Source: an uncultured Verrucomicrobiota bacterium
GTDB lineage: Bacteria; Auribacterota; JABMQX01
NCBI GenBank assembly: GCA_964516325.1
Contig: CAZFAP010000001.1
Coordinates: forward strand, 2,221 to 66,220
Direction of reading: 5' to 3'
DNA: 64,000 nt
The translations under genes and the position numbers were made by a program. The notes under the pieces are model-generated. The model saw nothing but the letters and a program-made list of their open reading frames with translations. It was not told where the DNA came from and made no database searches. Below are positions 27,422-49,729 of this stretch, one piece after another (the stretch's first letter is position 1; each line of letters starts with the position of its first letter).

Positions 27422-27511
27422 ATGATTTACAGGTACCTCCTCGGCGCCATCATTGGCGCCGCTATTGGCGGAATCGTTGGGCACCTCGGAAAATCCGCCG
27501 GCAGCACCTGA
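27422..27511 (+). CDS. Putative 29-aa glycine-zipper membrane peptide
   Basis: MIYRYLLGAIIGAAIGGIVGHLGKSAGST; 3 nt downstream a second glycine-zipper opens the next gene. A small peptide without a domain hit. Confidence 0.3.
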   Translation: MIYRYLLGAIIGAAIGGIVGHLGKSAGST

Positions 27512-27514
27512 CCC

Positions 27515-27955: not shown

Positions 27956-28002
27956 TCGCGCCTGGCGTTTGGCGTGCAGGATATAGAGCAAGGAGCCAGA
28001 GC

Positions 28003-28821
28003 ATGAAGGGGTTCAGAAGCGCGATTTCCGGGTTCATTCTCGTCGTCACTGCGGTCGGGCACGTCCTGGCCAACGAGGGGCACGCGCACGCCGTCTCCTG
28101 GGGTAGCCTCGTCGTGCCATTCGGGATCGCAACCCTTTCGCTGGCGGTCCTAACCGCCTTGCTCGGACTGCTAATGCCGAAGAACCGCAAGCTCTTGTTC
28201 AAGTGGCACAGGCGGTTCGCCGTGGCGACCCTCGTCGCAGGTGTCTGTCATGCGACGCTCGTCCTCCTGTTCCACGAGGAAGGAGAGGTTCAAAAGGAGG
28301 AACCTATGAAAGAGCGAAAAGATGTCGTGACCATGAAAGGCAATCCGTTGACCTTGCTTGGGGATGAGATAAAAGAAGGCGACGCGGCCCCCGATTTCGT
28401 CGTGATTGACAACAGCCTATCTCCGGTGAAGTTCTCATCGTTCCGCGGCAAAGTGTGCATCATCGCGTCCGTTCCTTCTCTCGACACGTCGGTCTGCGAT
28501 CTCGAAACGCGAAAATTCAACGAAGAGGCTGGGCGGCTGGGACCGGACGTGGTGATCCTGACAATAAGCATGGACCTGCCATTCGCCCAGAAACGTTGGT
28601 GCGGAGCAGCCGGTGTGACGAGGGTCCAGACCTTTTCCGACCACCGCGACGCTTCCTTCGGCAAAGCGTACGGCGTCCTCATCAAGGAGCTGCGGTTGTT
28701 GACGAGGGCGGTCTTCGTCGTGGACCGGCAGGGCACAATCCGCTACGTCGAACCGGTCAGTGAGATGACCAAAGAGCCGGACTACGAGGCTGCTCTGCAA
28801 GCCGTGCGCCTGTTACTCTGA
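28003..28821 (+). CDS. tpx: Thiol peroxidase (Tpx, atypical 2-Cys peroxiredoxin) fused in frame to a ~100-aa N-terminal 3-TM His-rich segment. An internal SD+ATG at 28306 would give a canonical soluble Tpx.
   Basis: The Tpx core is DFVVIDNSLSPVKFSSFRGKVCIIASVPSLDTSVCDLETRKF. Both 28003 and 28306 are preceded by AAGGAG(G) RBS sequences. Confidence 0.8.
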   Translation: MKGFRSAISGFILVVTAVGHVLANEGHAHAVSWGSLVVPFGIATLSLAVLTALLGLLMPKNRKLLFKWHRRFAVATLVAGVCHATLVLLFHEEGEVQKEEPMKERKDVVTMKGNPLTLLGDEIKEGDAAPDFVVIDNSLSPVKFSSFRGKVCIIASVPSLDTSVCDLETRKFNEEAGRLGPDVVILTISMDLPFAQKRWCGAAGVTRVQTFSDHRDASFGKAYGVLIKELRLLTRAVFVVDRQGTIRYVEPVSEMTKEPDYEAALQAVRLLL

Positions 28822-28864
28822 CGACACGCCTGCCGCGGATTCGCCGCGAAAAGGAGCTTGGACC

Positions 28865-30379: not shown

Positions 30380-30468
30380 CTCCCAGTGCATGTCCGGTTC
30401 AGGAAACAATCGGGCTGCGACAGCGCAATACCTGGCATCTATATCGTGAGTAGGAAAGGAGTGAAAAA

Positions 30469-30843
30469 ATGGCGCAGAGATTCCAGATTTACAAGTGCGA
30501 GATTTGTGGCAATATTGTGGAGGTCCTCCACGAGGGCAAAGGAGAGCTGGTCTGCTGCGACCAGCCCATGAAGCTTTTCGTCGAGAATACGGTGGATGCC
30601 TCCCGCGAAAAGCATGTCCCCGTCATCGAAAAGACGGATCGCGGTGTGAAGGTCAAGGTCGGCAGTCTTCCTCACCCGATGGAGCCAAAGCACTACATCG
30701 AGTGGATTGAGGTGATTGCCGACGGAAAAGTCTATCGCCAGTTCCTTAAGCCCGGAGACGCGCCTGAAGCCGCTTTTGTAATTCAGGCAACGCAGATCAC
30801 GGCAAGAGAGTACTGTAACATTCACGGTCTATGGAGGGGGTGA
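30469..30843 (+). CDS. dfx: Desulfoferrodoxin (class I 2Fe superoxide reductase)
   Basis: N-terminal desulforedoxin CEICGN...CC, then KHVPVIE...H...H...CNIHGLW. Confidence 0.9.
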
Positions 30844-30848
30844 CTACC

Positions 30849-31346
30849 ATGATTAACGAGAGAATTGAAAAGGCGTTTAACGAGCAGATCAAGAACGAAC
30901 TGGAATCCGCCTACATCTACCTGTCCATGGCGGCCTATTTCCACTCGCAAAACCTCGACGGAATGGCGCAGTGGATGCGCGTTCAGGCGAAAGAGGAAGT
31001 GGGGCATGCCATGAAGTTCTTCGACCACATCCGAGACCGCCAGGGGCGGGTCACCTTGTTGCCGCTTACCCCGCTGAAGACTGACTGGTCTTCGCCTCTG
31101 GAAGCTTTTCAGGACGCTTATGAACACGAGCAGTTCATCACCGGGAAGATCAATGAACTTGTCAAACTTGCCGACGACGAGAGCGACCCGCCCGCCAGCG
31201 TGCTCCTCCAGTGGTTCGTGAACGAGCAGGTCGAGGAGGAAGCGAACACCTCCAAGACCGTCCAGACGCTGGAGCTCGTGGGCGATTCCGGCCCTGGGTT
31301 GATCATGCTCGATCGGGAACTCGGCAAGAGGGAGTTCTCAGGTTAA
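30849..31346 (+). CDS. Non-haem bacterial ferritin
   Basis: The ferroxidase-centre pattern E...Y...EExGH...E...QxxE is readable in the sequence (ELESAYIYLSMAAYF, KEEVGHAMKF, VNEQVEEE). Confidence 0.85.
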   Translation: MINERIEKAFNEQIKNELESAYIYLSMAAYFHSQNLDGMAQWMRVQAKEEVGHAMKFFDHIRDRQGRVTLLPLTPLKTDWSSPLEAFQDAYEHEQFITGKINELVKLADDESDPPASVLLQWFVNEQVEEEANTSKTVQTLELVGDSGPGLIMLDRELGKREFSG

Positions 31347-31357
31347 CAGGAGTGAAT

Positions 31358-31849
31358 ATGAGCATCCATTTCAATGCAGACGAAATCTTCGAAATGGCCG
31401 AGCAGATCGAGAGGAACGGCGCCAACTTCTACCGCAAAGTCGCTGGAACGGCGGACGAAGCGGAAGTCCGGCGTGTCCTCCTCGATCTCGCCGCCATGGA
31501 AGACGAGCACGAGAAGACTTTCGCCGCCATGCGGGCGCAGTTGTCCGCGGAACAGCGCATCTCCATCACATTCGACCCCGAAGGGGAGGCGGCGATGTAC
31601 CTCCAAGCGATGGCGGATGGATATGTCTTTGACGTGCGCACCGACCCTTCCGAGCTTTTGACCGGAGAGGAGGGTCTCGCGGACATTCTCCACACCGCCA
31701 TCGGGCTTGAGAAAGACTCCATCGTCTTTTACCTCGGTATCCGAGATTTGGTCCCGGAGAAGTTCGGCAAGGGGAAGATCAATGACATAATCAAGGAAGA
31801 AATGGGGCACATCACCACCTTGAGCCAGAAGCTGGCCTCGCTGAATTGA
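31358..31849 (+). CDS. Rubrerythrin-family ferritin-like diiron protein
   Basis: Paired E-x2-H helices (AAMEDEHEKTF, IKEEMGHITTL); 163 aa; the track ORF 31211.. is over-extended. Confidence 0.65.
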   Translation: MSIHFNADEIFEMAEQIERNGANFYRKVAGTADEAEVRRVLLDLAAMEDEHEKTFAAMRAQLSAEQRISITFDPEGEAAMYLQAMADGYVFDVRTDPSELLTGEEGLADILHTAIGLEKDSIVFYLGIRDLVPEKFGKGKINDIIKEEMGHITTLSQKLASLN

Positions 31850-31907
31850 GGGCGGCCCCTTCTCGCCTCAGGCGTGGTCAGCTATTCGAATCGGAGGATA
31901 CGGGAAC

Positions 31908-32630
31908 ATGGAAGCATTATCTCGTCGCGACGTGTTTAGACTGCTTGGCGCCTCCGCCGCATGGGCGTCCGCGATCAGTTTCTCGGAGAGGTCCGCGAAA
32001 GCCGAAACATCGGAAGCTCTCAGCATCGCGCCCTACAAGCTCCCCGATCTGCCCTATCCGGTTGACGCTCTCGAACCGCACCTCGACGCACACACGTTGA
32101 CCATCCATCACGACAAGCATCACGCTGCCTACGTGCAGGGCTTGAATGCAGCGCTCGTCGGATTGCAGGAGGCTCGAAAGAAAGGAGACTTTGCGGCAGT
32201 CCAGGCTCTATCCGGTGCGCTCGCGTTCCACGGGTCCGGGCACCTGCTGCACACGCTCCACTTCGCCAACCTTCACCCGAAGCCAGCCAGGCCGGCGGGC
32301 GCCTTGTCGGGCGCGATCGAGGCGCAGTTTGGCAGCCTCGATGCCTTCATCGCGCACCTTGTCGCCGCCGCGAATACCGTTGCGGGCAGCGGCTGGGGGA
32401 TTCTCGCTTACGAACCTGTCGGGCGACGCCTGCTGGTGCTTCAGGTTGAGAAGCATGAGAACCAGCTCGTGTGCGGCGCCATTCCTTTGCTCGTGATTGA
32501 TGTCTGGGAGCATGCCTATTACCTGAGCTATCAGAACCGGCGAGCGGATTATGTGAAGGCCATCATGAACGTCATTCACTGGGACGAAGTTGCCCGTCGG
32601 TTCGACGAGGCGAGGCGCATTCACGGCTGA
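31908..32630 (+). CDS. Fe/Mn superoxide dismutase with a Tat signal peptide
   Basis: SRRDVFRLLGASAAWASA Tat motif; SOD motifs HHDKHH and DVWEHAYY. Confidence 0.9.
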   Translation: MEALSRRDVFRLLGASAAWASAISFSERSAKAETSEALSIAPYKLPDLPYPVDALEPHLDAHTLTIHHDKHHAAYVQGLNAALVGLQEARKKGDFAAVQALSGALAFHGSGHLLHTLHFANLHPKPARPAGALSGAIEAQFGSLDAFIAHLVAAANTVAGSGWGILAYEPVGRRLLVLQVEKHENQLVCGAIPLLVIDVWEHAYYLSYQNRRADYVKAIMNVIHWDEVARRFDEARRIHG

Positions 32631-32721
32631 ACTTGCACGGCGGTGTTTTAGAATCGGGGCGGCTCGCAGCGGTCCATGCGAAAAGTCTGCCGCGGGTTCT
32701 CAACGGTTCCCGGAGGACAAC

Positions 32722-34398
32722 ATGGCAAGTAAAACGTTCAACATCCTTGTGGGCGGAGAAGCCGGTCAGGGGCTGGTCACCGTCGGGGAATTGCTGACCC
32801 GGTGCCTCGTCCGCTCCGGTTATTTCGTCGTTGTCACTCAGACCTATCAATCGCGCATTCGCGGCGGGCACAATACGTTCGCCGTCCGTGTCAGCACAGA
32901 CCCAATCGTCGCTCCTCAAGAGCCCGTTGATCTCCTCGTCGCGCTGAATGCAGAGACCGTGAAGCTCCATCGAGAGGAACTGGTCCCCGACGGGCTGACC
33001 ATTGTTGACGAAGCCTTCGGCCTCACGGATGACTCCTGCCTGAAGGTTCCGTTCAAAGAGCTCTCCACCCGGAGGTCCACGAACATTGTGGCGCTTGCCG
33101 TCGTTGCGTCTTCGGTGGGACTCGACGAAAACCTCCTCTCCCGCACGATGGAGGAGTACTTCGGGAAGAAGGACCCCAAAGCCGCAGAAGAGAACCAGCA
33201 GGCGTTGAGGAGTTCGTTTCAGTGGTGCGCGGGTCGCCCAGCGAGGGTCAGCAAGCTGCCGTCCGTTCAAAATCCTCCAAAGCGCCTGATGATGAATGGA
33301 AATGAGGCGATTGCCTTGGGCGCCCTTTCCGCCGGGCTGAGGTTCTATTCCTTCTATCCCATGACTCCCTCCACCTCCATCGGGCAGTATCTTGCCGGAC
33401 AAGCAAAGCGGCTGGGCTTGATTGTCGAGCAGGGGGAGGATGAGATTGCCGTCATCAACATGGCGTTGGGCGCCTCCTTCGCCGGCGCCCCGAGCATGGT
33501 TTCGACCTCTGGCGGCGGATTTGCGTTGATGGTCGAGGGGGTCAGTCTTGCGGGAATGACCGAGACGCCCGTCGTAATTGTCGTTGGGCAGCGCCCCGCC
33601 CCAGCAACCGGACTCCCGACCCGCACGGAGCAGGCGGACCTCGAGTTCGTCCTCCACGCCGGACACGGCGAATTTCCGCGGGCGATCTTCTCTCCGGGTA
33701 CCGTCGAGGAGTGTTTCTATCTGACGCGTAAGGCGTTTGACCTCGCCGAGCGGTATCAGAGTCCAGTCTTCATCTTGACAGACCAATTCCTCGCCGATTC
33801 CTATCGTGCGGTCGCGCCCTTCGACTTGAAGGACCTCTCGCCCGTTCGTCCCGGAGTAGGGGAGGACGCGATTTCGCGCCCGTACAGAAGGCACGCGTTC
33901 ACGGAAAGCGGCGTCTCACCTCGCCTCCTTCCCGGTTTGACAGCACACCTTGTCGTCACCGACAGCGACGAGCACACCGAAGACGGGCACATAACGGAAG
34001 ACCTTTCCGTCCGGCGGCGGATGGTCCAAAAAAGGTTGAGAAAGCTGGAAGGAATTCGTCAGGACGTTACTCCGCCCGAGTTCCGTGGCGACGAGAATCC
34101 TGAACTCTTGCTCGTTTCATGGGGGAGCACAAAAGGCGCGGTCTGCGAAGCAGCTTCTCTCCTGAGGTTGCAGGGGCGTCGGGTTGTGGTGCTCCATTTT
34201 TCGCAGGTCTGGCCCATGGTCACCGACCAGGTCGTCCCGATTTTGGAAAAGGCTGGGGAGGTCGCCTGCGTGGAAGGAAATGCCACCGGTCAACTCGTAC
34301 GCTTGATCCGCCGTGAGACCGGTTTTGCCATCGAGAGGCGAATCCTCCGGTGCGACGGTTTGCCCTTCACGCCGGAATCAATCGTTCGTGAGCTGTAA
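32722..34398 (+). CDS. korA: 2-oxoacid:ferredoxin oxidoreductase, fused gamma/alpha subunit (two-subunit OFOR type)
   Basis: N-terminal gamma-like domain (ILVGGEAGQG) followed by an alpha domain (GNEAIALGALSAG...YPMTPST); 558 aa from ATG 32722. Confidence 0.85.
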   Translation: MASKTFNILVGGEAGQGLVTVGELLTRCLVRSGYFVVVTQTYQSRIRGGHNTFAVRVSTDPIVAPQEPVDLLVALNAETVKLHREELVPDGLTIVDEAFGLTDDSCLKVPFKELSTRRSTNIVALAVVASSVGLDENLLSRTMEEYFGKKDPKAAEENQQALRSSFQWCAGRPARVSKLPSVQNPPKRLMMNGNEAIALGALSAGLRFYSFYPMTPSTSIGQYLAGQAKRLGLIVEQGEDEIAVINMALGASFAGAPSMVSTSGGGFALMVEGVSLAGMTETPVVIVVGQRPAPATGLPTRTEQADLEFVLHAGHGEFPRAIFSPGTVEECFYLTRKAFDLAERYQSPVFILTDQFLADSYRAVAPFDLKDLSPVRPGVGEDAISRPYRRHAFTESGVSPRLLPGLTAHLVVTDSDEHTEDGHITEDLSVRRRMVQKRLRKLEGIRQDVTPPEFRGDENPELLLVSWGSTKGAVCEAASLLRLQGRRVVVLHFSQVWPMVTDQVVPILEKAGEVACVEGNATGQLVRLIRRETGFAIERRILRCDGLPFTPESIVREL

Positions 34399-34415
34399 CT
34401 CAAGACGAGGGCAAA

Positions 34416-35267
34416 ATGGTAACCATTGATGACTACGGAAAATATGAAACGGCGTGGTGTCCCGGCTGTGGAAACTTCGGTATTCTGAGAGCCGTCAAGC
34501 AGGCGCTCCTTGCCAGCGGGATCGAGCCACACCAGGTTCTTTTCGTCTCCGGCATCGGGCAGGCGGCAAAGGCCCCGCATTACCTGAATGCCAATCTTTT
34601 CAACGGTCTTCACGGGCGCTCCCTCCCGGTGGCGACGGGCGCCAAGCTCGCCAATCCCCGGCTCGTCGTCATCGTCGAAAGCGGCGATGGCTGCACCTAT
34701 GGCGAAGGCGGAAACCACTTCTTAGCCGCGATTCGCCGAAACATTGACCTTACGCTCCTCGTTCACAACAACCAGGTCTATGGCTTGACGAAAGGGCAGG
34801 CGAGCCCCACTTCGGAGGTCGGCTTCGTTACCAAGGCTCAGCCGGAGGGCGTCTTCGCCCAGCCCTTCAACCCGGTCGCAGTGGCCGTCGCTATGCACGC
34901 CGGATTTGTCGCGCGGAGCTTCGCCGGAATGCTCGACCATTTGGCGAAGATGATCCAGCAGGCAATTGCCCACCGGGGCCTCTCTCTTGTTGACATACTT
35001 CAACCATGTCCTTCGTTCAACAAGGTGAACACGTGGGAATGGTATCAGCGGCGGTGTTACGTTTTGCCGGAGGATCACGACCCCACGAGTTGGGAAGCCG
35101 CCATGAAGGTCGCCTATGAGTGGGGCGACCGCATCCCCGTCGGGATTATTTATCGAAACAATAGACCGCCGTTCGAGGAGAACTCTTCCGTTTTGCGTCA
35201 GGGACCGCTCGTTGGGCGAGACCTCGATAAGGAAGCGATGTCTGCGACTCTGGAGCGATTTGCCTGA
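34416..35267 (+). CDS. korB: 2-oxoacid:ferredoxin oxidoreductase beta subunit (TPP-binding)
   Basis: WCPGCGNFGIL, GDGCTYGEGGNH TPP motif. Confidence 0.9.
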   Translation: MVTIDDYGKYETAWCPGCGNFGILRAVKQALLASGIEPHQVLFVSGIGQAAKAPHYLNANLFNGLHGRSLPVATGAKLANPRLVVIVESGDGCTYGEGGNHFLAAIRRNIDLTLLVHNNQVYGLTKGQASPTSEVGFVTKAQPEGVFAQPFNPVAVAVAMHAGFVARSFAGMLDHLAKMIQQAIAHRGLSLVDILQPCPSFNKVNTWEWYQRRCYVLPEDHDPTSWEAAMKVAYEWGDRIPVGIIYRNNRPPFEENSSVLRQGPLVGRDLDKEAMSATLERFA

Positions 35268-35401
35268 AAGGCCTTCGCTGCAACAGGACGGCGTGTTCGC
35301 TGGCGGATAGAAACGGCAAAGCTCGGGCATGGGTTTTCATCTGCTCGTCGCCGACGCCCAGCAGCCGAGCTTGAGCAAGAGCGCAAATCAGAATTGAGAG
35401 A

Positions 35402-36211
35402 ATGGCTTTTCTGCGGGACCTTCATCCTGTCGTTCAGGCTCTTCTGGCTACATGCTTCACCTGGGGCGTAACCGCGCTGGGGGCGGCCTGGGTGTTCCTT
35501 TTCAAGAGAGTGAGCCAGAAGGTCCTTGGTGCCATGCTTGGTTTCGCGGGCGGGGTCATGGTCGCGGCCAGTTATTGGTCGCTCCTCGCTCCGGCGATCG
35601 AAATGTCCAAAGGCAGAAGTCTTCCGGCTTGGTTTGCTCCTGCCGTCGGATTTCTCGCGGGAGCTGTTTTCCTGCGAGGCATTGACCTGATTTTGCCGCA
35701 TCTCCATCCGGGCTTTTCGATGGAGGAGGCCGAGGGCATCCCGACATCCTGGCGGCGGAGCATCTTGCTGGTTCTGGCGATAACATTGCACAACATCCCC
35801 GAGGGGCTTGCGGTAGGGGTTGCCTTTGGCGCCGTTGCCGCAGGGTTCTCTGGCGCCACTCTCGGCGCGGCAGTGGCGCTTGCTATCGGAATCGGCCTTC
35901 AGAATTTCCCTGAGGGCCTGGCGGTTTCATTGCCGCTTCGTCGTGAAGGGATGTCTCGCTTGAAGAGTTTTTGGTATGGGCAGTTGTCGGCAGTGGTTGA
36001 GCCGATTGCGGGCGTGCTCGGCGCCGCCGCGGTCATGGCAGCGAAGCCGGTTCTTCCCTATGCCCTATCGTTTGCCGCGGGCGCCATGATCTTTGTCGTC
36101 GTTGAGGAGGTGGTGCCCGAATCCCACCACGGCGGGAACGCTCACCTGGCGACTCTTGGCTTCATGGTGGGATTCATTGTAATGATGGTTCTTGACGTCG
36201 CCCTGGGCTGA
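35402..36211 (+). CDS. ZIP-family metal cation transporter (ZupT-like)
   Basis: [10 protein letters not shown] and QNFPEGLAV signature helices; 8 TM helices. Confidence 0.85.
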
Positions 36212-36371
36212 AGCGTTTTCGATCGTTCGCTCGGGCGCGGACGTGCGATGCGCTACAGGTCAATTGCTAATGCAGGCTGACGAATGCAGTTCGGCCGGGG
36301 ATAGAGAAACGGAGTCAAATCACAGACAGCGGAACGTCGCAAGTTTTTGGCAAAACACGGGAGGAATGACC

Positions 36372-37004
36372 ATGGCAACTCTTCTGCACATTCAGGCAAC
36401 CGCAACGCCCGAATTATCGTACTCTCTTCGAGCGGCGCAGGCTTTCCTGGAAAGCTATCGAGAATCCCACCCGGGCGACAGGATTGACACCCTCGACCTC
36501 GGGAAAGACCGTATCCCGGATTTCCTCGGCCTTGTGGCGCGGGGAAAGTACCGCATTCTCCATGGCGAGCCTCACACCAAGGAGGAAGCGAATGCCTGGG
36601 AAGCCGTCGCTTCTGAAATCGAGCGATTCAAAAAAGCCGACAAGTACGTCATTTCGTCGCCCATGTGGAACTTCACCATACCCTATCGTCTGAAGCAATA
36701 TTTCGACGTCATCGTCCAACCCGGCTACACATTCGCCTATTCTTCGGAGAAAGGGTACACCGGATTGGTGACCGGGCGACCGGTTATGTTGTTTCTGGCG
36801 CGCGGCGGGGAATACAAGCCCGGCACCGGCGCCGCTGCGTTCGATTTCCAGCGCCCATACCTGGAGACTATCCTGCGGTTCATTGGGTTCACGGAGATCG
36901 GTGTGATCGTGGTCGAGCCGACGCTCCTGGGTGGTCCCCAGGTCGCCGAGAAAAAGGTGAACGAAGCAATTGCAGAGGCTCGTGAGAAAGCCAAAACGTT
37001 TTAA
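36372..37004 (+). CDS. azoR: FMN-dependent NADH-azoreductase / flavodoxin-like quinone reductase
   Basis: Flavodoxin-like fold with SSPMWNF; overall AzoR architecture. An ATG at 36366 is an alternative start. Confidence 0.75.
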   Translation: MATLLHIQATATPELSYSLRAAQAFLESYRESHPGDRIDTLDLGKDRIPDFLGLVARGKYRILHGEPHTKEEANAWEAVASEIERFKKADKYVISSPMWNFTIPYRLKQYFDVIVQPGYTFAYSSEKGYTGLVTGRPVMLFLARGGEYKPGTGAAAFDFQRPYLETILRFIGFTEIGVIVVEPTLLGGPQVAEKKVNEAIAEAREKAKTF

Positions 37005-37109
37005 GCTTGACCGGTCCGGCGCCCCGGCGGGCACTGCGACGGGGCCGGTAGTCTGCGTGAATCCGCGTTCGTCTGTGGTTTCACCCATTTTTGCGGAAGG
37101 AGAAACGGA

Positions 37110-38147
37110 ATGAAAGCAGCGGTCATTCGTGAGCATGGCGGACACGACGTTATTCACATCGAGGAGATTCCTAATCCAGAAGCGGCGGAAGGCGAAATCG
37201 TCCTTGAACTTCGCGCCGCGGCGCTGAATCATCTCGATATATGGGTGCGCAAAGGGCGCCCCGGGCTGGTCCTCCTCTTCCCTCACGTGTTAGGTTCAGA
37301 TGGCGCGGGCGCCGTCGTAGAGACCGGTCCGGCCGTCCGTGGCTTCTCGGTCGGGGATGAAGTCATTCTAAATCCGGGTCTCAGTTGCGGGGTCTGCGAG
37401 TACTGCCAGCGTGGGGAACAGAGCGAGTGTCCGGCGTTTGGCATACTGGGCATGTCGCGCCCGGGGACCTTCGCCGAGCGGGTCGCCGTGCCTGCCGCCA
37501 ACGTCCATCCGAAGCCGCCCACGCTCAGTTTTGAGGAAGCTGCCGCTTTGCCTCTGGCGCATCTCACCGCCTGGAGAATGCTGATGACTCGGGCGGGGCT
37601 TCAACCCGGCGAGACTGTTCTAATTCATGGAATTGGCGGCGGAGTCGCTCTTGCGGCCCTTCAATTCGCCAAGCTCCTGAGCGCTGGGGTCATCGTGACA
37701 TCGTCATCCGACGAGAAGCTCTCCCGCGCAAAGGAGCTGGGCGCCGATCACACGGTTAACCACAGGACTGCGCCCGACCCGACCGCCGCCATCCACGAAA
37801 TCACCGAGGGGCGCGGCGTTGACGTTGCCGTGGATACAACGGGAGCAGCTACCTTCCCCGTTGACATTGCCGTGGTTCGTCGGGGCGGGAGAATCGTTCT
37901 CTGTGGCGTTACGACGGGCGCAATAGCGGAGACCGATTTGCGGAGAGTGTATTGGAACCAGTTGACCATTCTCGGTTCCACCATGGGGTCCCACGAGGAC
38001 TTCCGGCAGATGCTTCGCGCGGTCACCAATGCGAAGCTGAAGCCCGTGATTGATTCGGTTGTTCCTCTCGACGGTTGCAGCGACGCCATCGCTCGGATGG
38101 AGAACGGCGAGCAGTTCGGCAAGATTGTTCTGGCCATTTCAGGTTGA
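37110..38147 (+). CDS. Zn-dependent alcohol dehydrogenase / quinone oxidoreductase (MDR superfamily)
   Basis: GHDVIHIEEIPNP N-terminal catalytic domain and a GIGGGVALAALQFAK Rossmann motif. Confidence 0.85.
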   Translation: MKAAVIREHGGHDVIHIEEIPNPEAAEGEIVLELRAAALNHLDIWVRKGRPGLVLLFPHVLGSDGAGAVVETGPAVRGFSVGDEVILNPGLSCGVCEYCQRGEQSECPAFGILGMSRPGTFAERVAVPAANVHPKPPTLSFEEAAALPLAHLTAWRMLMTRAGLQPGETVLIHGIGGGVALAALQFAKLLSAGVIVTSSSDEKLSRAKELGADHTVNHRTAPDPTAAIHEITEGRGVDVAVDTTGAATFPVDIAVVRRGGRIVLCGVTTGAIAETDLRRVYWNQLTILGSTMGSHEDFRQMLRAVTNAKLKPVIDSVVPLDGCSDAIARMENGEQFGKIVLAISG

Positions 38148-38229
38148 CCTGACTGTAGATGAGACAGATTCGGCACGATCCGTGTTGACCGGCGTCCATG
38201 TGCGGTTTCAAAGTTAGGAGGATGATTTC

Positions 38230-39438
38230 ATGAGCGGACCATTTAAAGCAACCCAGGTGACAGAGAACATTTTTTGGGTGGGCGCCATTGACTGGGCCCT
38301 GCGAAATTTCCACGGCTACGCCACCAGCCGCGGCACGACCTACAACGCCTACCTCATCCTCGCCGACAAAATCACCTTGGTTGATACGGTCAAGGCGCCC
38401 TTCAAGGATGAAATGCTTTCCCGAATCGCCTCGGTCATTGATCCTGCGAAGGTTGACTACATCATCTCGAATCACTCGGAGATGGACCATTCGGGATGCC
38501 TCCCAGAGGTCATCGAGCGAATTAAGCCTCAAAAAGTCCTCGCTTCCGAGAACGGCGTCAAGGCTCTTCGAGAGCATTTCCACACTTCCCATGACATCGT
38601 CGCGGTCAGGGACGGCGAGAGCCTCAGCCTCGGGAACATGACCCTCTCCTTCATGGAGACCCGGATGCTCCACTGGCCCGATAGCATGTTCACCTATGTT
38701 GCGGAGCAGCAGTTCCTCTTCTCGCAGGATGCCTTTGGCATGCACCTCGCCAGCACCGAAAGATTTGACGATGAGCTTGACAGCCAGGCCCTCGAATACG
38801 AAGCCGCCAAATACTACGCCAACATCCTCCTGCCGTTTTCCTCCTTCGTCACGAGGCTTTTGGAGAAGCTTGGGAAGCTCGGTATCCCAATCAGGACGAT
38901 GGCGCCGGACCATGGCCCCATCTGGCGCAAAGACGTTAACAAAATAGTCGAGCTTTATTCCCGCTGGGCTGCTCAGAAGCCCACCATGAAGGCCGTCATC
39001 ACCTACGACACCATGTGGCAGAGCACCGCCCTCATGGCGCGGGCGATATGCGACGGACTGGTATCCGGCGGGGTCAGCGTCAAAGTCATGCCCCTCGATG
39101 CCTGCCACCGCAGCGATGTCGCCACGGAAGTCTTCGACGCCGGCGCTCTCCTGGTCGGCTCACCCACCATGAACAACACGATCTTCCCGACGGTCGCGGA
39201 CGTTATGACGTATCTCAGGGGTCTGAAGCCCCGGAACAAAATCGGTGCGGTCTTCGGCTCCTACGGCTGGAGCGGCGAAGCGGTGAAGCAACTGGGAAAT
39301 ATGCTCGCCGAGATGAAGATCGAGCTGGTCGGCGAACCGATCAACGCGAAATACGTGCCCGATGGCGAAACCCTCGCCAGGTGCTTTGCTCTCGGCGCCC
39401 TCGTCGCCGAAAAGCTCAGGGGGAAATGCGGCCCCTGA
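38230..39438 (+). CDS. Flavodiiron protein (FprA / rubredoxin:oxygen oxidoreductase type O2/NO reductase)
   Basis: Metallo-beta-lactamase-like diiron domain (HSEMDHSG) followed by a flavodoxin domain (VFGSYGWSGEA). Confidence 0.9.
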   Translation: MSGPFKATQVTENIFWVGAIDWALRNFHGYATSRGTTYNAYLILADKITLVDTVKAPFKDEMLSRIASVIDPAKVDYIISNHSEMDHSGCLPEVIERIKPQKVLASENGVKALREHFHTSHDIVAVRDGESLSLGNMTLSFMETRMLHWPDSMFTYVAEQQFLFSQDAFGMHLASTERFDDELDSQALEYEAAKYYANILLPFSSFVTRLLEKLGKLGIPIRTMAPDHGPIWRKDVNKIVELYSRWAAQKPTMKAVITYDTMWQSTALMARAICDGLVSGGVSVKVMPLDACHRSDVATEVFDAGALLVGSPTMNNTIFPTVADVMTYLRGLKPRNKIGAVFGSYGWSGEAVKQLGNMLAEMKIELVGEPINAKYVPDGETLARCFALGALVAEKLRGKCGP

Positions 39439-39439
39439 C

Positions 39440-40319
39440 GGGCGGCTTGCAGACATAGGCGACCATAAGGACTCCGCCTTGGCTTCGCCCCATTCCTGGG
39501 CTTGCGTCTGAAGTAACCGGTCACCTCTCAATGTAGCCCCTTAGTGATAGGTGGAGGTCATCGGGAATGACGGGGTCCCCCCCAAGGGGATGGAAGCGCA
39601 GTCGCCCATGAACTTCGTTCAGCCCGAGACCATGAAAATGGTGGCGGCATCGTTATGCTTCAGTTGCGCATGAGCGAGCCATCGCCTGGTGCAAGATCGG
39701 CATGATGGGGCTGCGACACCAGGCCCCCAGGCGATGGTTGCCGGCTTCAGTGGCGCCGTCGGCGCCACTTGTAGCCGGGCTTCCCGGACCCATGGGGTTC
39801 ACCCCGTTCCCACCTCTCAGCGGTAGCCACAGCCCCCGGCCCCACGGCGCCGACTTTCAGGGCGGAGAACGCCGAGATCGCAGAGAGAGCACCGCCCGTC
39901 GGAGAAACGTGGCATGGGCATCTTGCCCATAGCTGGCGGAGCACCCACGGTCCCGCCAAAGGCGGGATGCCGCGGACGTCCGTCCTCTGCGCTCTCTGCG
40001 GGGAGTCCCCTCCTGAGACTGAGGCGTTACGTTTCACTTCACCTTTTTATTGACACACCGCAGAGCTTTTCCTTATAAGCGTGCCGCAATTGCGCCCGAC
40101 TTTTCCGGGCGGTTGCATTGCTTCCGTCGTGGGAGGAGCTGCTTCGCTTGTGAAGCAGGAGGGCGTTTGCAGCCCTCGACTTTGCTGGTCGCGTTGCGTC
40201 CTGTGCGACGCAGGCCCTGCGACCCTGCGGGCGCCCTTGAGTCACTTGATGCGGATGAGACCCTACTGCGCCTTTGAGCGCAAGGCATCCACCCGTGCAA
40301 ATGACCCTATGACCAGAAC
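39440..40319. other. About 880 bp of non-coding, hairpin-rich sequence; candidate structured RNA or regulatory region of unknown identity
   Basis: No convincing ORF. It contains the perfect palindrome AGTGGCGCC-GTC-GGCGCCACT (39749-39769), an 11-nt inverted repeat CCATCGCCTGG...CCAGGCGATGG (39679/39727), and short hairpins ATGGGCA-TCTT-TGCCCAT and CCCGCC-AAA-GGCGGG. Confidence 0.3.
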
Positions 40320-40346
40320 TTGTGCTTACGGAGGTTGATCTATCTG

Positions 40347-40511
40347 ATGTGCTGCGACCTATGTCCCGAATTTGAGGAGTGTGAACATCCTCTCGACGAA
40401 TCGGAGTACGGTTGCCTCAAATGTCCAGAGTACCATGATTGCGATGTCCGCTCGGACACGGAATACGTAGGCTTCGACGAGGAAGAAGGGACGGAGAACC
40501 TTGAGTTTTGA
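40347..40511 (+). CDS. Small (54 aa) highly acidic cysteine-rich protein, a possible metal-binding / zinc-ribbon peptide
   Basis: MCCDLCPEFEECEHPLDESEYGCLKCPEYHDCDV... has 7 Cys in C-C-x2-C / C-x2-C spacing; GGAGG RBS 10-12 nt upstream. Confidence 0.35.
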   Translation: MCCDLCPEFEECEHPLDESEYGCLKCPEYHDCDVRSDTEYVGFDEEEGTENLEF

Positions 40512-40705
40512 GTCGCCGCTGCGTCTCGGTTTCTCTTGCTTTGTCCCCGCTTGGCTTAGAAATCGCGCCGCAGGTCGGTTGTGCCTGCACGCAGTTCGCT
40601 TGAAGGTGAATCGTGTTGTGGCGGCGCCTGAGCACAAGGGACTTTGAAAAGCCCTTTTCCTCCACCTCTTCACGCGACCCTCGCATATTGATAGGGAGTC
40701 CAGAA

Positions 40706-41809
40706 ATGAGGCCATTTTTTCGAAGGTTCTTGATTCTCCTTGCGGGACCTCTCGGTTTGGATTGTGTCTCCTCGCTCGCCATCGCAACTTCGCTTTCCCC
40801 GGAACCGCCGCTTCCTGTCTGGGCTCCTCGCCAGTCCAGCGCCCGCAGCCGGGCCGTCTATCGGATGGAAGACACCGTCATGGGTCCCATCACCGCCCGG
40901 ATTACCGCTGTCTCGACTCGCATGTCCGAGAAGGAGATGGAGTCCATCGTCAAGGCTGCCTTCGCCGAAGTCCACAAGATAGACGCCTTGATGAGCCACT
41001 ACAAAAAGGATAGCGACGTCTCTCGTCTGAACGAAAGTCCCGCGGGCGTTTGGACCCGAGTTGACCCGCTGACCTTCGCTGTGCTTGAGGAATCGCAGAG
41101 AGTCGCCGAGTTGAGCGGAGGAGCCTTCGATGTGACCGTTCAACCCCTATGCACCCTGTGGGGTTTCTGGCCCGTCAGAGACCCGAAGGTGCCATCCAGC
41201 GAAGAGATTCGTGCGGCCCTGTCGCATGTCGGCTATATGAAGCTCTCTCTCGACCAGAAGAACTCCACTGTTATGAAAAGCGACACCGAGGTGAAGCTTG
41301 ACCTCAGCGCCGTTGCGAAGGGCTACGCTGTTGACAAAGCGATAGAGCTTCTGAAGGAAAAGGGGCTGCGCGACGCGCTTGTCGAAATCGGCGGCGAGAT
41401 CCGCACCATCGGAAAAAACAAAGAGGGCAAACCCTGGCGAATCGGCGTTCTCCACCCGATAAAACCCGGCTACCTGACCGTGCTCAACATATCTGACAAG
41501 GCTGTCGCCACCTCCGGCGATTACATGAACTTCTTCGTCCTTGACGGCAAGCGATATTGCCACCTGATGGACCCGCGCACGGGACAACCCATTTCGAACG
41601 ACCTCTGCAGCGTCACTGTGATCGCCGAGAATTGCGCGCGGGCCGACGCGTTAGCCACCGCCGTCTCCGTCATGGGGCTCGAACAAGGCATGAAGCTGAT
41701 CGAGTCCTTGCCCGGAACCGAAGCCATCATCGTCCGACGCAAGAATGGCGGAAACGAACTGGAAGTTACCGTCTCGAAGGGCCTAAAAGGCCTCGACTTC
41801 TCGCGGTAG
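40706..41809 (+). CDS. apbE: ApbE-family FAD:protein FMN transferase (probable lipoprotein)
   Basis: Signal/lipobox-like N-terminus (MRPFFRRFLILLAGPLGLDC); core ApbE motifs (VDLSAVAKGYAVD, GGEIRTIG, ATSGDY). Confidence 0.85.
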   Translation: MRPFFRRFLILLAGPLGLDCVSSLAIATSLSPEPPLPVWAPRQSSARSRAVYRMEDTVMGPITARITAVSTRMSEKEMESIVKAAFAEVHKIDALMSHYKKDSDVSRLNESPAGVWTRVDPLTFAVLEESQRVAELSGGAFDVTVQPLCTLWGFWPVRDPKVPSSEEIRAALSHVGYMKLSLDQKNSTVMKSDTEVKLDLSAVAKGYAVDKAIELLKEKGLRDALVEIGGEIRTIGKNKEGKPWRIGVLHPIKPGYLTVLNISDKAVATSGDYMNFFVLDGKRYCHLMDPRTGQPISNDLCSVTVIAENCARADALATAVSVMGLEQGMKLIESLPGTEAIIVRRKNGGNELEVTVSKGLKGLDFSR

Positions 41810-42309
41810 TGCGGAGCTTCGCCGCCGCCCTCACCGATTCACCGATTTCACCATTGACTCCGCCCCCCTTAACCGACCCCATTGGGGAGGCGTCCTTTCC
41901 CGAATCGTACGCGATCCTTCTCCGACGGGAACATCTGCGACAGGGCGCTCCCGAAGCCCAATCCGTTGTATGCCGTGAATACCCCAACGAGCGTCACCAG
42001 GGAGTTCGCCCCTGAACCCCGCTGACCCCGATGTGCTCGGGTGTGGCTGTATTTCGGTTGTTCGGCACGTCGGCTCGTCCCAAGAGTCGTAGGTTTGCGC
42101 CGTTGACGGAGGATCGTCGTGGCCGGTGGGGCCGGAGGAAGGGGCCTCGCCGGCTTCCAGCCGGCATCCCCCGTTAGCTACCTGCTTCAGCTGGTGGTCA
42201 ACCAAAGGGCGTCCCCTCCCCCAGCCGCCTTTCAGGCGGGCTTCTCGACCAATGGATTCATCCATCCGCTCCACCAAGACACAGCCACCCCCGCTGTGCT
42301 CCTCGGCAT

Positions 42310-42338
42310 TGACCCTCCGGCGCCAACCTGATAACATT
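42310..42338 (+). promoter_or_regulatory. Putative sigma70 promoter for tRNA-Leu
   Basis: TTGACC, a 17-nt spacer, then TAACAT, ending 17 nt before the tRNA 5' end. Confidence 0.4.
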
Positions 42339-42355
42339 TCAGTTAGGAGCCCGCA

Positions 42356-42441
42356 GCCGGGGTGGCGAAACTGGCAGACGCAAGGGACTTAAAATCCCTT
42401 GGGGCGCAAGCCCCGTATGGGTTCAAATCCCATCCCCGGCA
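42356..42441 (+). tRNA. tRNA-Leu (anticodon UAA), class II tRNA with a long variable arm; CCA not encoded
   Basis: Acceptor stem GCCGGGG/CCCCGGC; anticodon stem-loop AAGGGA-CUUAAAA-UCCCUU; variable arm GGGCGCAAGCCCCG; T-arm ATGGG-TTCAAAT-CCCAT; discriminator A. Confidence 0.9.
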
Positions 42442-42715
42442 CGTACCTTAGGACTTTTCCGCGACCTCTCCTGTGTGCCGCACTGGCCTCGAAAAGTGTA
42501 CGTGTTTTCGGAAAAAGCCTCGCGCACGGGCGAGGCGTTGTCTGTGATGAACCGCTCAAGGTCCGGCTCCGCGATAAGCACCCTGCAAGCTCTTTCCCCC
42601 AGCCCCGGAAGCCGCACGAGGCGAGCCGCCCGCAGGCGATAAGGCGCTTCAGGGTGTTCTTGCTTATCCTCAACACCCCCGCCGCTTCATCGGTTGTCAG
42701 CAATCGGGGCAGCAT
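42423..42715 (-). pseudogene. Frameshifted excisionase/AlpA-like HTH DNA-binding gene; its 3' end runs antisense through tRNA-Leu
   Basis: Frame A reads MLPRLLTTDEAAGVLRISKNTLKRLIACGRL, a classic Xis HTH. The expected continuation RVLIAEPDLERFI lies in a second frame (ORF 42423..42617), which implies a -1/+1 frameshift. Confidence 0.4.
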
Positions 42716-44100
42716 GCTTTCCCTGTAGAAACTGACGTTTTGCCGTAAGGGGAGATGGGGGAGAGTCCGAGGGAAAGGGAGCGTTTTTGAGCCGTTGGGG
42801 GGAAGAACTGGGGAAAAAGTTGATTTTTCCTCTTCTTTTCTCTTGGCTCTTATATGCATTATGATATCATAACACATAAGAACAATGAGCCCTTTATCCC
42901 AGATCAGTCGGGCGCGGCAGCGCATTGCGCAACTGGCTCGGCAACGGCAGGCGGTGGAACGGGTGCTCTTGGAGCGGTCGGCTCTGCTGAAAGGCACGCT
43001 GATCGAACTGCAACGCACCTGCGGGAAGCGGGGGTGCAAGTGCGCCCGGGGTCAGAAGCATACCTGCTGGCAGCTTTCGGCCAGCGTGGAAGGGAAGACC
43101 CGCGCCTGGAACGTGCCGCGTCGGTATCTTGCCGAGGTGAAACGGCTGACGGAGAACTACGGTCGTTTCCGCCGGGCCCGGGCGGCGTGGGTTTGGCTCA
43201 ATGCCGAGATGCGGGAGCGTATCCATGAGGTGGAAGCGGCTCGCACCGTGGGGGATTTTCGAGATGAATACAGGCGTCAAAAAGGTTAAGAAAAGGGCAG
43301 CGGCGTTGCGGCGTGCCGCCAATCAGGGCAATCGCAAGCGGCTGGGGGGCAGGGTCGGTACATGTCTTGGAAGCATCTGACGTGCAACCAGAAAGAAGTG
43401 GCCCGGCGTCTGGCTCACGGAGAGGAGAAGGTGTTCCTGACGTCACTCGGTGTTCATACCCCCCGGGACGTCGTGGACCGCTACGACCTGCGCAGTCTGA
43501 TTGAGAGCTGCAGCAACCGCGATCTGAAGTCCCGCCAAAGGCGGGATTCAACATGACGCTGGCCTACCACAGTGAAGAGGGCGAGGAGATTGCCCAGGAA
43601 TGCATCCGCCGGTACCGCCTCAAGACCATGGCGCAGACCCGACACAAATGCATGATCGTCTCCGGCGACCACTACGGGATCTTTGATCTCGAAGAGCTGA
43701 TGATGCTCGTCGGTCAGCGGGTGCGCTGCCCCATGCGCACCGATGAAGAACAGTTCCGGAAGCTTCACGCGCTGCAGCCGCCCGGGCGCCACGCCCGTAC
43801 TGTCCCCACAGCTCACCCCCTGGAGCCCCTTCCCCTGCAGCAGACCGGTCCGCCTTGTCGCCGAATGCCCAACTCAATCCACCCGTACTCTTGCTCGCAC
43901 ACAACCGTCAACCCCTGGTAGCCCAGGCAGGCTGCCCCGCTTCGGGATCAGCCGAAAAATCACCCTTTTCTCCTCCCGCCACGCCCGATTTCGCAACGAA
44001 CCAGCGCCCTTATGGCACAATCTCAATTTGTCGGAGTCGGAGGTTGCCTGCGGGGCGTGCGCGCGTTATGGTCTTTCCTATCAGTGATCCCGTTTTTGCC
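42442..44100. mobile_element. Degraded integrative-element remnant 3' of tRNA-Leu: a frameshifted Xis-like HTH gene, a DUF6788-like Cys-rich protein and short gene fragments; no intact integrase
   Basis: tRNA-adjacent position; an AT-rich palindromic patch (ATGATATCAT, ~42860) that is unusual in this GC-rich DNA; only fragmentary ORFs over 1.6 kb. Confidence 0.35.
42885..43289 (+). CDS. DUF6788-like protein with a CGKxxCxCARGxxH zinc-binding motif, associated with mobile elements
   Basis: LLKGTLIELQRTCGKRGCKCARGQKH...GKTRAWNVPRRYLAEVKRLTENYGRFR matches the DUF6788 pattern recalled from memory. Confidence 0.45.
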   Translation: MSPLSQISRARQRIAQLARQRQAVERVLLERSALLKGTLIELQRTCGKRGCKCARGQKHTCWQLSASVEGKTRAWNVPRRYLAEVKRLTENYGRFRRARAAWVWLNAEMRERIHEVEAARTVGDFRDEYRRQKG

Positions 44101-47905: not shown

Positions 47906-48370
47906 GGACGGATCCTTGTGCTCATCCGGACTGGATCAACCTCCGAAAGGAGTAGGCCTCTTTTCTGCATGTAGTATACTACCTCGCTGGCGACCAGCAA
48001 TTCCTTTCTCGTGTTGCGAGAGCTGTGGCTATCGGCACACCCTATGTTCTGCTTCAAAAGCATGCTCCGCCCAACAACTCGGTCAACCAAGCCGTTATCC
48101 ACATGGCTTTCGATGTGGCATTCCCGCTCATCGTGCCTTCGTGCCCTGGCGGCGAGGACGCCGTGACAACCACAGAAACACCAAGACGCAAAAAGGATCG
48201 TACGGTGAAGGAATCGCGCACCTCGGGCGGTAACGCTGCCGCGTCGTTTTGTGGGACGCTGGCGCCACTTGGCGAGAGAACAGGGAATTCGAGTTCTGCT
48301 CTGAAACTCGGCGCCGCGGAGTCCGGATTCTCGTGGTCCCCGCGTGAGCGACGTTCGTGAGCGACTGCGG

Positions 48371-49729
48371 CTATTGAGACGTGACCCGGTAGTAGCGTTC
48401 GCCGATGCCGGTGATGTCTTCGCCTTCCCAACCGCTATTCGTGGTGGGCCAGGCGCCGGGAGCATTCTGCCAGATTGCGCCAGCCAGCTTCTCGGTCCAC
48501 TGCACGGAGTATCGCCCGTTGCCGAACCTTTGCCACGTGAGCGAGACTTTGTTTTCGGTCCTCGTGATGCTCGGCGGGTAAAGCGGCGCCAGACCGTTCT
48601 TCCAGCGGTTGACCATGGCGTTGATCCACGGGTAGTACGAACGCTGGGGCATGCCGGTGTGGCTCTGACTCCAACTGTCAGTGCCGCCGCAGAAGACCAC
48701 GGCGGTGCGGTGGTTGAGCCATGGCTCGGGGTGGTCGTCGTTCCCCGCGTTCCTGCCAAGCTCCTCGGAGTCGGTGGTGTCAAGCGTCTCGTCGGGAAAA
48801 CCTCCCACCGGAAACCAGGCGTATTCGGCGTCCAGGACGGGATCATCGCTCGTCCAGGCGATGGCGTTGTGCCAGTCAAAGGCGCAGACGTTCGTGAGTG
48901 GATAGTCCTCAAAAGTGTCGGTGCCCGTCGGGTCGTATTCGTGCAGCCAGTCCTCTCGAAGCCAGCGTGCGAATTCGCGGCACTTGTGCGCCTCGTCGTC
49001 TGACAGATAGCACATCGGCGGCGCCTGCATGGCGATGAAAAGAAGGTCAGGATGCTCCACAAAGAGGTTCAACATTCCCCTGTACGCGACCTTGAGTTGG
49101 GCCAGGGAGGAATCCGCCCCACTCCAGTCGCCATGACTCCAGTGGGTGTCTGTGTAGCCGTCCTCTACGGAATCCGTGGAGTTGAGATAGACGAAATTAT
49201 TGACGCCGTTGTCCGAGTAGGGGGTGCCGCCGATTACGCTTCCCTCAGCATTGTAAACCGTATCGTAGCTGGACACAGACGACCCGGGATAGCATGGTTT
49301 GAACATGATGATGTCCATCTGTTCCGCGCGATATTCATACCACGCCAACATGAAGTCGTCGGGCGGAATCTCCCGGACCGGACTCACCCCGGGACCTTCA
49401 TAGCGATAGTACTTGTCGCTGAGCTTGACGCCGAGCTCCCGCTGGAACCGCTTGTACCAGTGCCGGTAGTCCGTATAATTGTTCCCATAAACGTACTGTT
49501 CGCCGATGCGGGAGTGCAATGTGTAGCCGAGGTTTTCCAGTGCGACGCTCAGTCCGTCGTCCAAAAGGTTGCCTCCGGAAGAGTGATGAAAGAAGTTGAA
49601 CACCATGTCGCCGATATTCTCCGGTGTGTCGAAATTGTATTCGTCGAATTCCGCCCAGAGAGGCGGAGCGAAAAGGAATACGAAAAGGGAGACGGCGACC
49701 GCAAGGTCAAAACGGAAACCATTTCTCAT
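48371..49729 (-). CDS. Secreted hypothetical protein (452 aa) carrying the conserved C-terminal ~65-aa domain shared with two other secreted proteins
   Basis: Signal peptide MRNGFRFDLAVAVSLFVFLFAPPLWA; C-terminus VSLTWQRFGNGRYSVQW...YYRVTSQ. The overlapping track ORF 47902..49062 is an antisense artefact rich in R/S/T/P. Confidence 0.7.
   Translation of the reverse strand: MRNGFRFDLAVAVSLFVFLFAPPLWAEFDEYNFDTPENIGDMVFNFFHHSSGGNLLDDGLSVALENLGYTLHSRIGEQYVYGNNYTDYRHWYKRFQRELGVKLSDKYYRYEGPGVSPVREIPPDDFMLAWYEYRAEQMDIIMFKPCYPGSSVSSYDTVYNAEGSVIGGTPYSDNGVNNFVYLNSTDSVEDGYTDTHWSHGDWSGADSSLAQLKVAYRGMLNLFVEHPDLLFIAMQAPPMCYLSDDEAHKCREFARWLREDWLHEYDPTGTDTFEDYPLTNVCAFDWHNAIAWTSDDPVLDAEYAWFPVGGFPDETLDTTDSEELGRNAGNDDHPEPWLNHRTAVVFCGGTDSWSQSHTGMPQRSYYPWINAMVNRWKNGLAPLYPPSITRTENKVSLTWQRFGNGRYSVQWTEKLAGAIWQNAPGAWPTTNSGWEGEDITGIGERYYRVTSQ

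Follow-up and report, generated by a model that had tools for sequence, protein, structure and literature searches.

Genomic context and coding content of the gap

In the window, i.e. the whole stretch of 64,000 nucleotides analysed, a gene-free gap extended from position 39439 to position 40346. It was bounded by the stop codon (39438) of a gene encoding a flavodiiron protein (FDP) of 402 amino acids (38230-39438, plus strand) and by the start (40347) of an orphan ORF of 54 amino acids (40347-40511, plus strand). The latter ORF is annotated at NCBI and encodes an acidic, cysteine-rich protein (MCCDLCPEFEECEH...CLKCPEYHDC), which had no match in Pfam and matched only itself among 5.8 billion proteins, making it useless as a homology anchor. 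If this ORF is not real, the right bound of the gap shifts to 40613, the start of an ApbE gene (40613-41809, plus strand) located downstream of it. Within the gap, the longest ORF measured 96 amino acids, none of the ORFs passed codon-usage scoring, and a Pfam search with ten gap ORFs of 40 to 96 amino acids returned no match at E ≤ 0.1, in agreement with the original prediction that the region holds no protein-like ORF. The accompanying statement that spacers elsewhere in the window are shorter than 100 bp was wrong, as a rough gene map displayed about ten further gaps of 200 to 700 nt, for example 15434-15878, 17746-18162, 22513-23224, 47906-48370, and 54962-55410.

Upstream, the window contained a gene cluster for defence against oxygen and ROS (23225-39438), encompassing genes for a Fur-family regulator, desulfoferrodoxin, rubrerythrin, flavodoxin-like proteins, ADH, and the FDP. 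Genes for PFOR subunits were located upstream of this cluster, in a gene order common to the loci L001, L082, and L084. Downstream of the ApbE gene, a region of low coding score (41810-43855) adjoined a tRNA-Leu gene (42356-42442) and contained an excisionase-like (HTH_17) ORF (42389-43039, minus strand); this region is possibly an integrated element.

The best relatives of the FDP were 72-77% identical. The upstream gene order (PFOR subunits, ZIP, flavodoxin-like protein, ADH, and FDP) was kept in L001, L082, L083, and L084, and the region downstream of the FDP gene was absent in these four loci, so that the gap lies at a break in synteny. Conservation was assessed in a sample of 80 loci (one genome per species), supplemented with the best metagenome relatives, which had at most short modules in common with the gap. 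The only syntenic carrier of such modules was L001, a Verrucomicrobiota MAG, and this at a different gap: its PFOR-beta/ZIP spacer, in which modules were present, measured 428 nt, whereas that of the window and of L082 had a length of 125-135 nt and that of L084 spanned just 7 nt. Furthermore, blastn with the gap retrieved the modules of L001 in the order C-E-D-A-B versus A-B-C-D-E in the window. The alignment with relatives that had been proposed as a check of the original prediction thus found the region missing from the closest syntenic relatives and only short modules shared. Regarding the assemblies themselves, that of L082 ended just after the FDP gene, and a Logan contig of 1288 nt (L110), identical to 40106-41393, started inside the gap; identical sequence also occurs in run ERR4334734. 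These breaks may be due to repeat-induced fragmentation; the Logan break at 40106 falls in a part of the gap without repeat match.

Secondary structure and RNA family searches

All four stems listed in the original prediction were retrieved, namely an 11-nt perfect stem (CCATCGCCTGG/CCAGGCGATGG; 39679-39689/39727-39737) and a 10-nt perfect stem (AGTGGCGCCG/CGGCGCCACT; 39749-39758/39760-39769), both in the part referred to below as the cargo, as well as the stems ATGGGCA/TGCCCAT (39914-39920/39924-39930) and CCCGCC/GGCGGG (39952-39957/39961-39966). Its description of the region (880 nt) as hairpin-dense was borne out by an excess of folding over dinucleotide shuffles on both strands: the plus strand folded at -403.6 kcal/mol versus -362.6 ± 8.2 kcal/mol for the shuffles (z = -5.0), and the minus strand had a z value of -3.7. 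Among the sub-regions, z values of -2.95 (39560-39900), -2.50 (39846-40050), and -2.87 (40085-40346) were obtained, while the value of +1.21 for 39439-39596 indicated the absence of excess structure there. The background, consisting of 92 segments of 300 nt from the same sequence, had a mean z of -0.27 (standard deviation 1.26) and a minimum of -4.0, the latter belonging to the 300-nt segment at 42601.

At gathering score, Rfam retrieved solely the tRNA-Leu gene (42356-42441) in the whole window. An E-value scan of 39300-40750 yielded matches at chance level, the best of those in the gap having E values of 1.3-8.3, far under gathering score, and six related loci did not give any Rfam match. 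Neither riboswitches nor large ncRNAs (OLE, GOLLD, and HEARO) in Rfam matched the gap at gathering score. Similarly, the covariance models agreed with the original prediction, in which no match to RNase P, tmRNA, SRP, or 6S RNA could be made by eye. The cmscan check that had been proposed with it hence revealed nothing real in the gap.

Anatomy of the gap

Repeat matches obtained by blastn spanned 39584-40022, and the remaining parts (39439-39583 and 40023-40346) matched none of the fetched loci. As nothing matched 39439-39593 and 40023-40346, repeats leave roughly half of the 880 nt unaccounted for. The first of these two parts (39439-39593) is a spacer after the FDP gene, lacking both a blastn match to the fetched loci and excess structure. 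It is followed by a module referred to as the A box (39594-39640, plus strand), composed of a putative target half plus AG (AAGCGCAG) and, starting from the TC at 39602, a left terminus of the IS110 type with the hairpin TGAAC-TTC-GTTCA. The subsequent cargo (39641-39845, plus strand) contains the 11-nt and 10-nt stems mentioned above and a CCGGG/CCCGG hairpin preceded by GTAG. One homologue of the cargo was found, in L094, which was 83.6% identical to the A box and cargo (39597-39748) over 152 nt. The cargo ends at the B box (39846-39867, plus strand), a putative, degenerate right terminus that reads GGCGCCGACTTTCAGGGCGG followed by AG, with GCGG versus GCAG in full elements.

The left terminus was clearly recognized by an HMM of the A box (E 3.7e-14 at 39594-39640). 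The best match of the B-box HMM in the whole window occurred at 39848-39866, on the correct strand and at the correct position relative to the A box, but was weak (E 0.19 for the 64 kb searched). Neither of the two guide motifs that are described below for full-length relatives (TCTGRCC and GCRCG..GCAGA) was present in the window element, and tblastn did not find an IS110 transposase within the 64-kb window. The element lacks a transposase and is much shorter than its parent (~265 nt versus ~1.5 kb), as is the case for MITE-like elements.

Downstream of the B box, an inverted array of heptamers was present. Its left arm (CGCAGAG type, AACGCCGAGATCGCAGAGAGAGC; 39868-39893, plus strand), in which the right half of the target used for insertion can probably be recognized, pairs with 39985-40000 in the right arm (CCTCTGCGCTCTCTGCGGGG, the reverse complement of CGCAGAG repeats; 39983-40003, minus strand). 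Comparable heptamer arrays occurred downstream of the B boxes in L089, L104, L087, and L098. The array of the window encloses two hairpins. Hairpin C (AAACGTGGCATGGGCATCTTGCCCAT; 39905-39930, plus strand) is REP-like and was identical in L001 (26 of 26 positions), with similar copies in L102 and in the viral contig L081; in the latter, the single match among the viral contigs scanned, it stood by itself in the 41 nt that separate two genes. Hairpin D (TCCCGCC-AAA-GGCGGGA; 39951-39967, plus strand) is a recurring short palindrome, of which an exact 19-mer was found again at 43529-43547 of the window and variants in L094, L001, and L089. Both hairpins resemble REP/BIME sequences, being short (20-40 nt), imperfect, extragenic palindromes present in many loci. 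By eye, a further hairpin F (CCTCCTGAGACTGAGG, followed by CGTTAC; 40003-40030, plus strand) was distinguished, and CTGAGGCRTTAC likewise followed a CTCTGCG array in L089 and L105.

A promoter-like sequence (TTGACA and TATAAG, 18 nt apart; 40050-40079, plus strand) was seen by eye; it does not pass the criteria of the scan owing to the G at the sixth position of the second hexamer, and the scan of the gap found neither promoters nor intrinsic-terminator-like sites. The last part of the gap (40085-40346, plus strand) is hairpin-rich and matched none of the fetched loci; separate from the repeat core, it possibly serves as a leader to the orphan ORF and the ApbE gene. Two of its hairpins, 40092-40111 (GCGCCCGACTTTTCCGGGCGG) and 40172-40191 (GCCCTCGACTTTGCTGGTCG), resemble the B box of the window and may represent further degenerate right-end fragments within this putative leader.

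A and B boxes as dispersed modules

A search pattern derived from the best-conserved piece of the gap (CGCAGTCNNNCAYGAACNTCGYTCA) matched 25 metagenome loci, and the A box of the window was 83-91% identical to that of these loci and L001. The consensus of the A box comprises ~47 nt (CGCAGTC nnn CATGAACTTCGTTCACCCGGAGACCATGAAAATG) and is followed by variable hairpin modules and next by the B box, the consensus of which consists of GCnGC(G/A)TAG, the hairpin GCCCT-TATTTTC-AGGGC, and AGAG. The A-box HMM recognized the window twice, detected additional, unforced copies in L088, L103, and L105, and gave nothing below E 0.9 in 79 loci of other lineages (L002-L080). With respect to the A box, the flanking genes had the same direction in five loci and the opposite direction in eight, and were convergent in one. 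The modules are multi-copy and independent of context; as expected for MITE-like elements, copies occurred in several contexts and their presence or absence varied among relatives.

The hairpin of the A box was paired for 91% and covaried among the copies (TGAAC/GTTCA, TGTGC/GCACA, GCCGC/GCGGC, and GGCGC/GCGGC), with four double-change cells and a covariation score that was reached by none of 500 shuffles, although the pattern by which most of the A-box loci had been collected fixed part of the hairpin, so that the independent support for covariation consists of a handful of IS copies and the unforced hits. An outer stem in the A box (TTTCATG/CATGAAA) did not covary. The possibility that the A box is a promoter, an ECF site, or a LexA-type site was dropped, in view of the lack of support from scans and the mixed orientation. 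A full-text literature search with the A-box sequence returned nothing, and the A-box patterns did not match any of the viral contigs scanned.

The second A box of the window belonged to a minimal A-B element (48296-48373, minus strand), in which ~69 nt lie between the junctions ...CCGCAG/TC and ...CAGAGCAG/AA. This element (48364-48296, minus strand) follows directly after the stop codon of the gene at 48371-49729. It was recognized by the A-box HMM (E 5.7e-11) and, at 48314-48295, by the B-box HMM, as the third-best match in the window; blastn with the gap retrieved it too, as a partial copy (48373-48295, minus strand). In addition, a module AAGTCGGATTCTGTTTTCTCTCGCCAAGGCGCAAAGACGC...GCGGCTTTGCGAGAG, located after a first B box and closed by a second one, was seen in L086, L106, L095, L103, and L093 as well as in the window (48295-48250, minus strand); it looks like a nested insertion or a second cassette type.

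Full-length IS110-family relatives

Full-length IS110-family elements carrying the boxes were found on ten contigs, representing seven types (L101, L111/112, L113, L114, L115/116, L117, and L118/119). L101 consists of an A box, 242 nt, and a gene for a DEDD transposase of 411 amino acids (PF01548), the stop codon of which lies inside a B box. The six further types were fetched by a protein search, their transposases being about 65-83% identical to that of L101. An A box was present at every left end reached by the contigs, involving five or six types (L101, L111/112, L114, L115, L117, and L118/119); the contigs L113 and L116 begin within the left end, with the hairpin already there. The left ends measured 222-244 nt before the ATG codon of the transposase gene. 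In all seven types, a B box occurred at or just past the stop codon of the transposase gene, the B-type right end (TTTTC..GCAG) being located 14-19 nt past this codon in six of the types, with a distance of 42 nt for L118/119, and the full elements end in TTTTCAnnGCAG followed by AG. This combination of a long non-coding left end, a short right end, and no long terminal inverted repeats is the layout of the IS110 group. The first 219 amino acids of the L101 protein matched PF01548 (E 1.2e-28), and both PF01548 and PF02371 were precomputed for P0122-P0241. Boxes A and B constitute the two ends of full-length IS110-family elements. With transposases of 408-412 amino acids, L101 and L111-L119 form a clade of IS110-group elements.

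Short A-B elements in L100, L001, and L109 comprise the first ~100 nt of the left end of L101 and its last ~70 nt, the latter including the final transposase codons. As a left end and a right end with the last transposase codons are joined in them, these elements bear the mark of internal-deletion derivatives. The alternative that IS110 elements were merely inserted into a pre-existing A-B repeat was rejected, since five types begin with the A box, all seven end in the B box, the distances are fixed, and the short elements keep the last codons of the transposase gene. A comparison of L091 with L101, which come from different metagenomes, displayed the same left flank (99.3% identity over 735 nt), with a short A-B element in the former versus a full IS in the latter and divergence starting 58 nt into the A box. 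This difference reflects either a genuine polymorphism or a chimera that arose when the repeat was assembled; in the case of L101, the metagenome assembly may be chimeric at the shared A box.

Guide-like segments in the left ends

In the IS110 group, a bridge RNA with a 5' stem-loop is encoded in the left end, and elements with such an RNA target REPs (PMC11208160). In the left ends of the full-length elements, an internal segment NNNNN-AG-TCTGRCC read AACGC, AACGC, ACCGC, AATGG, AGAGC, and AGCGC, and the left flanks before the junction AG read, for the same elements and in the same order, AACGC, AACGC, ACCAC, AATGG, AGAGC, and AGCGC. A second segment of the left end (GCRCG..GCAGA) read ..GGGCAG, AAGGCAG, AGAGCAG, GAAGCAG, and GTAGCAG, identical, element by element, to the last bases of the right end. 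On the basis of sequence alone, the seven IS types were thus found to have a 5' stem-loop together with segments following the target and the donor, a comparison with the flanks being possible in five of them. These internal segments fit the relations expected of putative target and donor guides. A comparison of flanks, from which the ends of the elements were derived as well, points to an AG core at both junctions (...CGC-AG before TC... and ...GGC-AG before AG...). The right flanks typically consisted of (N)CGCAGAG repeats, indicating a preferred target of the CGCAGAG type. An RNAalifold consensus based on four sequences was weakly informative. At the inferred right-left junction, TTTTCA and TCAT lie ~10 nt apart, which is not sigma-70-like.

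These elements add seven natural examples in which guide-like segments of the left end match the adjoining target or right end, the comparison with flanks being possible in five, and could help to catalogue the diversity of bridge RNAs and their target rules outside Proteobacteria. One of them (L117:600-2176) is flanked, in a head-to-tail arrangement, by the right end of a second member (ending in TTATTTTCAGAGCAG) and the left end of a third one (starting with TCCCTCATGCCGCC...). The target-guide-like segment of L117, CAGAGCAG, equals a right end of the L114/L115 type, which suggests that elements target the ends of their siblings; alternatively, the arrangement could be a tandem or circular assembly. 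At the level of the lineage (probably Verrucomicrobiota), it is conceivable, albeit speculative, that a large, uncatalogued clade of IS110-group elements with bridge RNAs spawned many transposase-less A...B cassettes with interchangeable cargo, that some guides became programmed against sibling ends, building self-nesting mosaics such as that of the gap, and that some cargos are maybe functional, hitch-hiking RNAs.

Origin of the gap

The gap can probably be explained as a lineage-specific pile-up of interspersed repeats at a break in synteny, with a core (39602-39865) that is a non-autonomous, MITE-like derivative of an IS110-group element. This core would keep the left terminus, i.e. the A box, in which the 5' stem-loop of the RNA encoded by the left end is included, along with a right terminus in degenerate form (the B box), whereas the transposase and the part of the bridge RNA that bears the guides would be replaced by ~200 nt of palindromic cargo. 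As full IS110 elements carry the A and B boxes together with signatures of a bridge RNA, the core may be considered a transposase-less and guide-less A...B derivative. The element appears to sit in the left arm of the inverted CGCAGAG-type heptamer array, which would also enclose the two REP-like hairpins and has the appearance of the target favoured by this IS family. Its arrival would have involved a transposase and a bridge RNA acting in trans. The window copy is probably non-autonomous and by now a fossil, since GCAG at its right end has become GCGG and guides are lacking. Apart from incidental effects that they may exert on the ends of transcripts, the hairpins would not fulfil a cellular role of their own. 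In this reading, the region is a mosaic of ordinary mobile-DNA debris and not a new kind of system. The repeats would also account for the synteny and assembly breaks at the gap.

What remains of the original prediction is a non-coding, hairpin-rich region, of which the best-conserved piece, the A box, can be taken to derive from an IS110-type insertion sequence, namely from its left end, where RNA is encoded. A single, large, novel structured ncRNA gene of ~600-900 nt, for which the strong overall excess of folding and the absence of a coding signal could be invoked, is very unlikely and already largely refuted. No Rfam family matched, the closest syntenic relatives lack the region, and nothing is conserved as a unit: the conserved parts are separate short modules that occur in unrelated contexts and in both orientations, permuted in L001 and single elsewhere. 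Moreover, the 11-nt stem is broken at five of its 11 pairs in its one homologue (L094), without compensation, the window copy does not have the guide-bearing segments of the full-length elements, and the first 155 nt lack excess structure. Annotation of this genome hence loses one false candidate RNA gene. A functional small RNA gene, made up of the A...B element or of its cargo and either hitch-hiking on the IS110 machinery or supplying an RNA that regulates or competes with the transposase, is unlikely too. The better folding of the plus strand (z -5.0 versus -3.7), the covarying 5' stem-loop kept in the A box, the presence of A and B boxes around at least three unrelated kinds of cargo, and the precedent of ssr9 in MITEPpu9 (PMC12288879) are in line with such a gene; the empty scan of the gap for promoters and terminators, the single cargo homologue with its decayed, uncompensated 11-nt stem, the missing guide motifs, and the mixed orientation relative to genes argue against it.

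The downstream part of the gap bears on another possibility, namely that the whole gap is a long regulatory UTR, being either the 3' UTR of the FDP mRNA or the 5' leader of an operon of the small ORF and ApbE, the hairpins of which would control termination, stability, or translation. The genes on either side run in the direction of the plus strand, the TTGACA/TATAAG sequence at 40050-40079 is near-consensus, 40085-40346 folds at z -2.87 without repeat matches, and REPs are thought to stabilise upstream mRNAs (PMC3733652). Yet, the scan revealed no intrinsic-terminator-like sites, Rfam did not match a riboswitch or leader family, the small ORF downstream is an orphan, and the region is missing from relatives that share the upstream operon, so that this explanation, which could hold for the last 260 nt only, is quite unlikely. 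Finally, a decayed protein-coding gene is hardly credible; the gap is gene-sized and lies at a break in synteny, but it holds no ORF with a Pfam match at E ≤ 0.1 and no codon-usage signal, and its matches to other loci are short modules at the nucleotide level that are not frame-consistent.

Comparison with known mobile elements

The interpretation of the core as a non-autonomous IS110-group derivative has a close counterpart in ISPpu9 and MITEPpu9 of Pseudomonas putida (IS110 family), which possess A/B and A'/B' boxes and an AG crossover, the cargo of MITEPpu9 being mobilised in trans and insertion taking place into REP/BIME clusters (PMC12288879). As in that system, the conserved boxes that delimit the IS on its two sides bracket short, transposase-less segments as well (PMC12288879), the left box contains an inverted repeat, an AG dinucleotide is found at both junctions, one short copy keeps the 3' end of tnp, and insertion occurs in intergenic clusters of palindromic repeats (REP/BIME). 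In contrast, the elements of the present study belong to another phylum, probably Verrucomicrobiota, have unrelated box sequences, and are putatively mobile. Furthermore, whereas MITEPpu9 carries one sRNA gene, the cargo is heterogeneous here and the window copy looks degenerate. Like IS621 and the IS110 group (PMC11208160), the related full-length elements encode a DEDD transposase with the domains PF01548 and PF02371, combine a long left end (222-244 nt) with a short right one, contain in the left end a 5' stem-loop as well as segments following the target and the donor, and seem to prefer repetitive targets. Unlike that group, the window holds only a guide-less and transposase-less derivative, and the core appears to be AG here versus CT in IS621.

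The surroundings of the element resemble REP/BIME mosaics, including the GTAG-tagged REPs of the PVC superphylum (PMC3733652), in that short extragenic palindromes occur in many loci, are clustered between co-directional genes, and form clusters into which IS110-family elements insert. Similarly to GTAG-tagged REPs, a G/ATAG motif precedes the hairpin of the B box. The main module, however, stems from IS110 ends, unlike RAYT-associated REPs, and no RAYT gene was seen among the subset of window ORFs that was scanned. Hairpin-dense "junk" gaps in PVC-type genomes may thus be traceable to RNA-guided IS110 recombinases and their non-autonomous derivatives.

A separate repeat family was present at 15640-15800 of the window (...CCCTTCAGGGCT...CCTCAGGGCTTCGCCCTGGGCT...GCCCTGAAAGGGCGCGATAAT). 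Repeats of this type are presumably the source of spurious 'ALKGRDN'-type ORFs in genomes of the PVC group and Acidobacteria. A faint echo of this repeat (GGCTTCGCCC...CTGGGCT) was seen at 39481-39505, within the spacer after the FDP gene.
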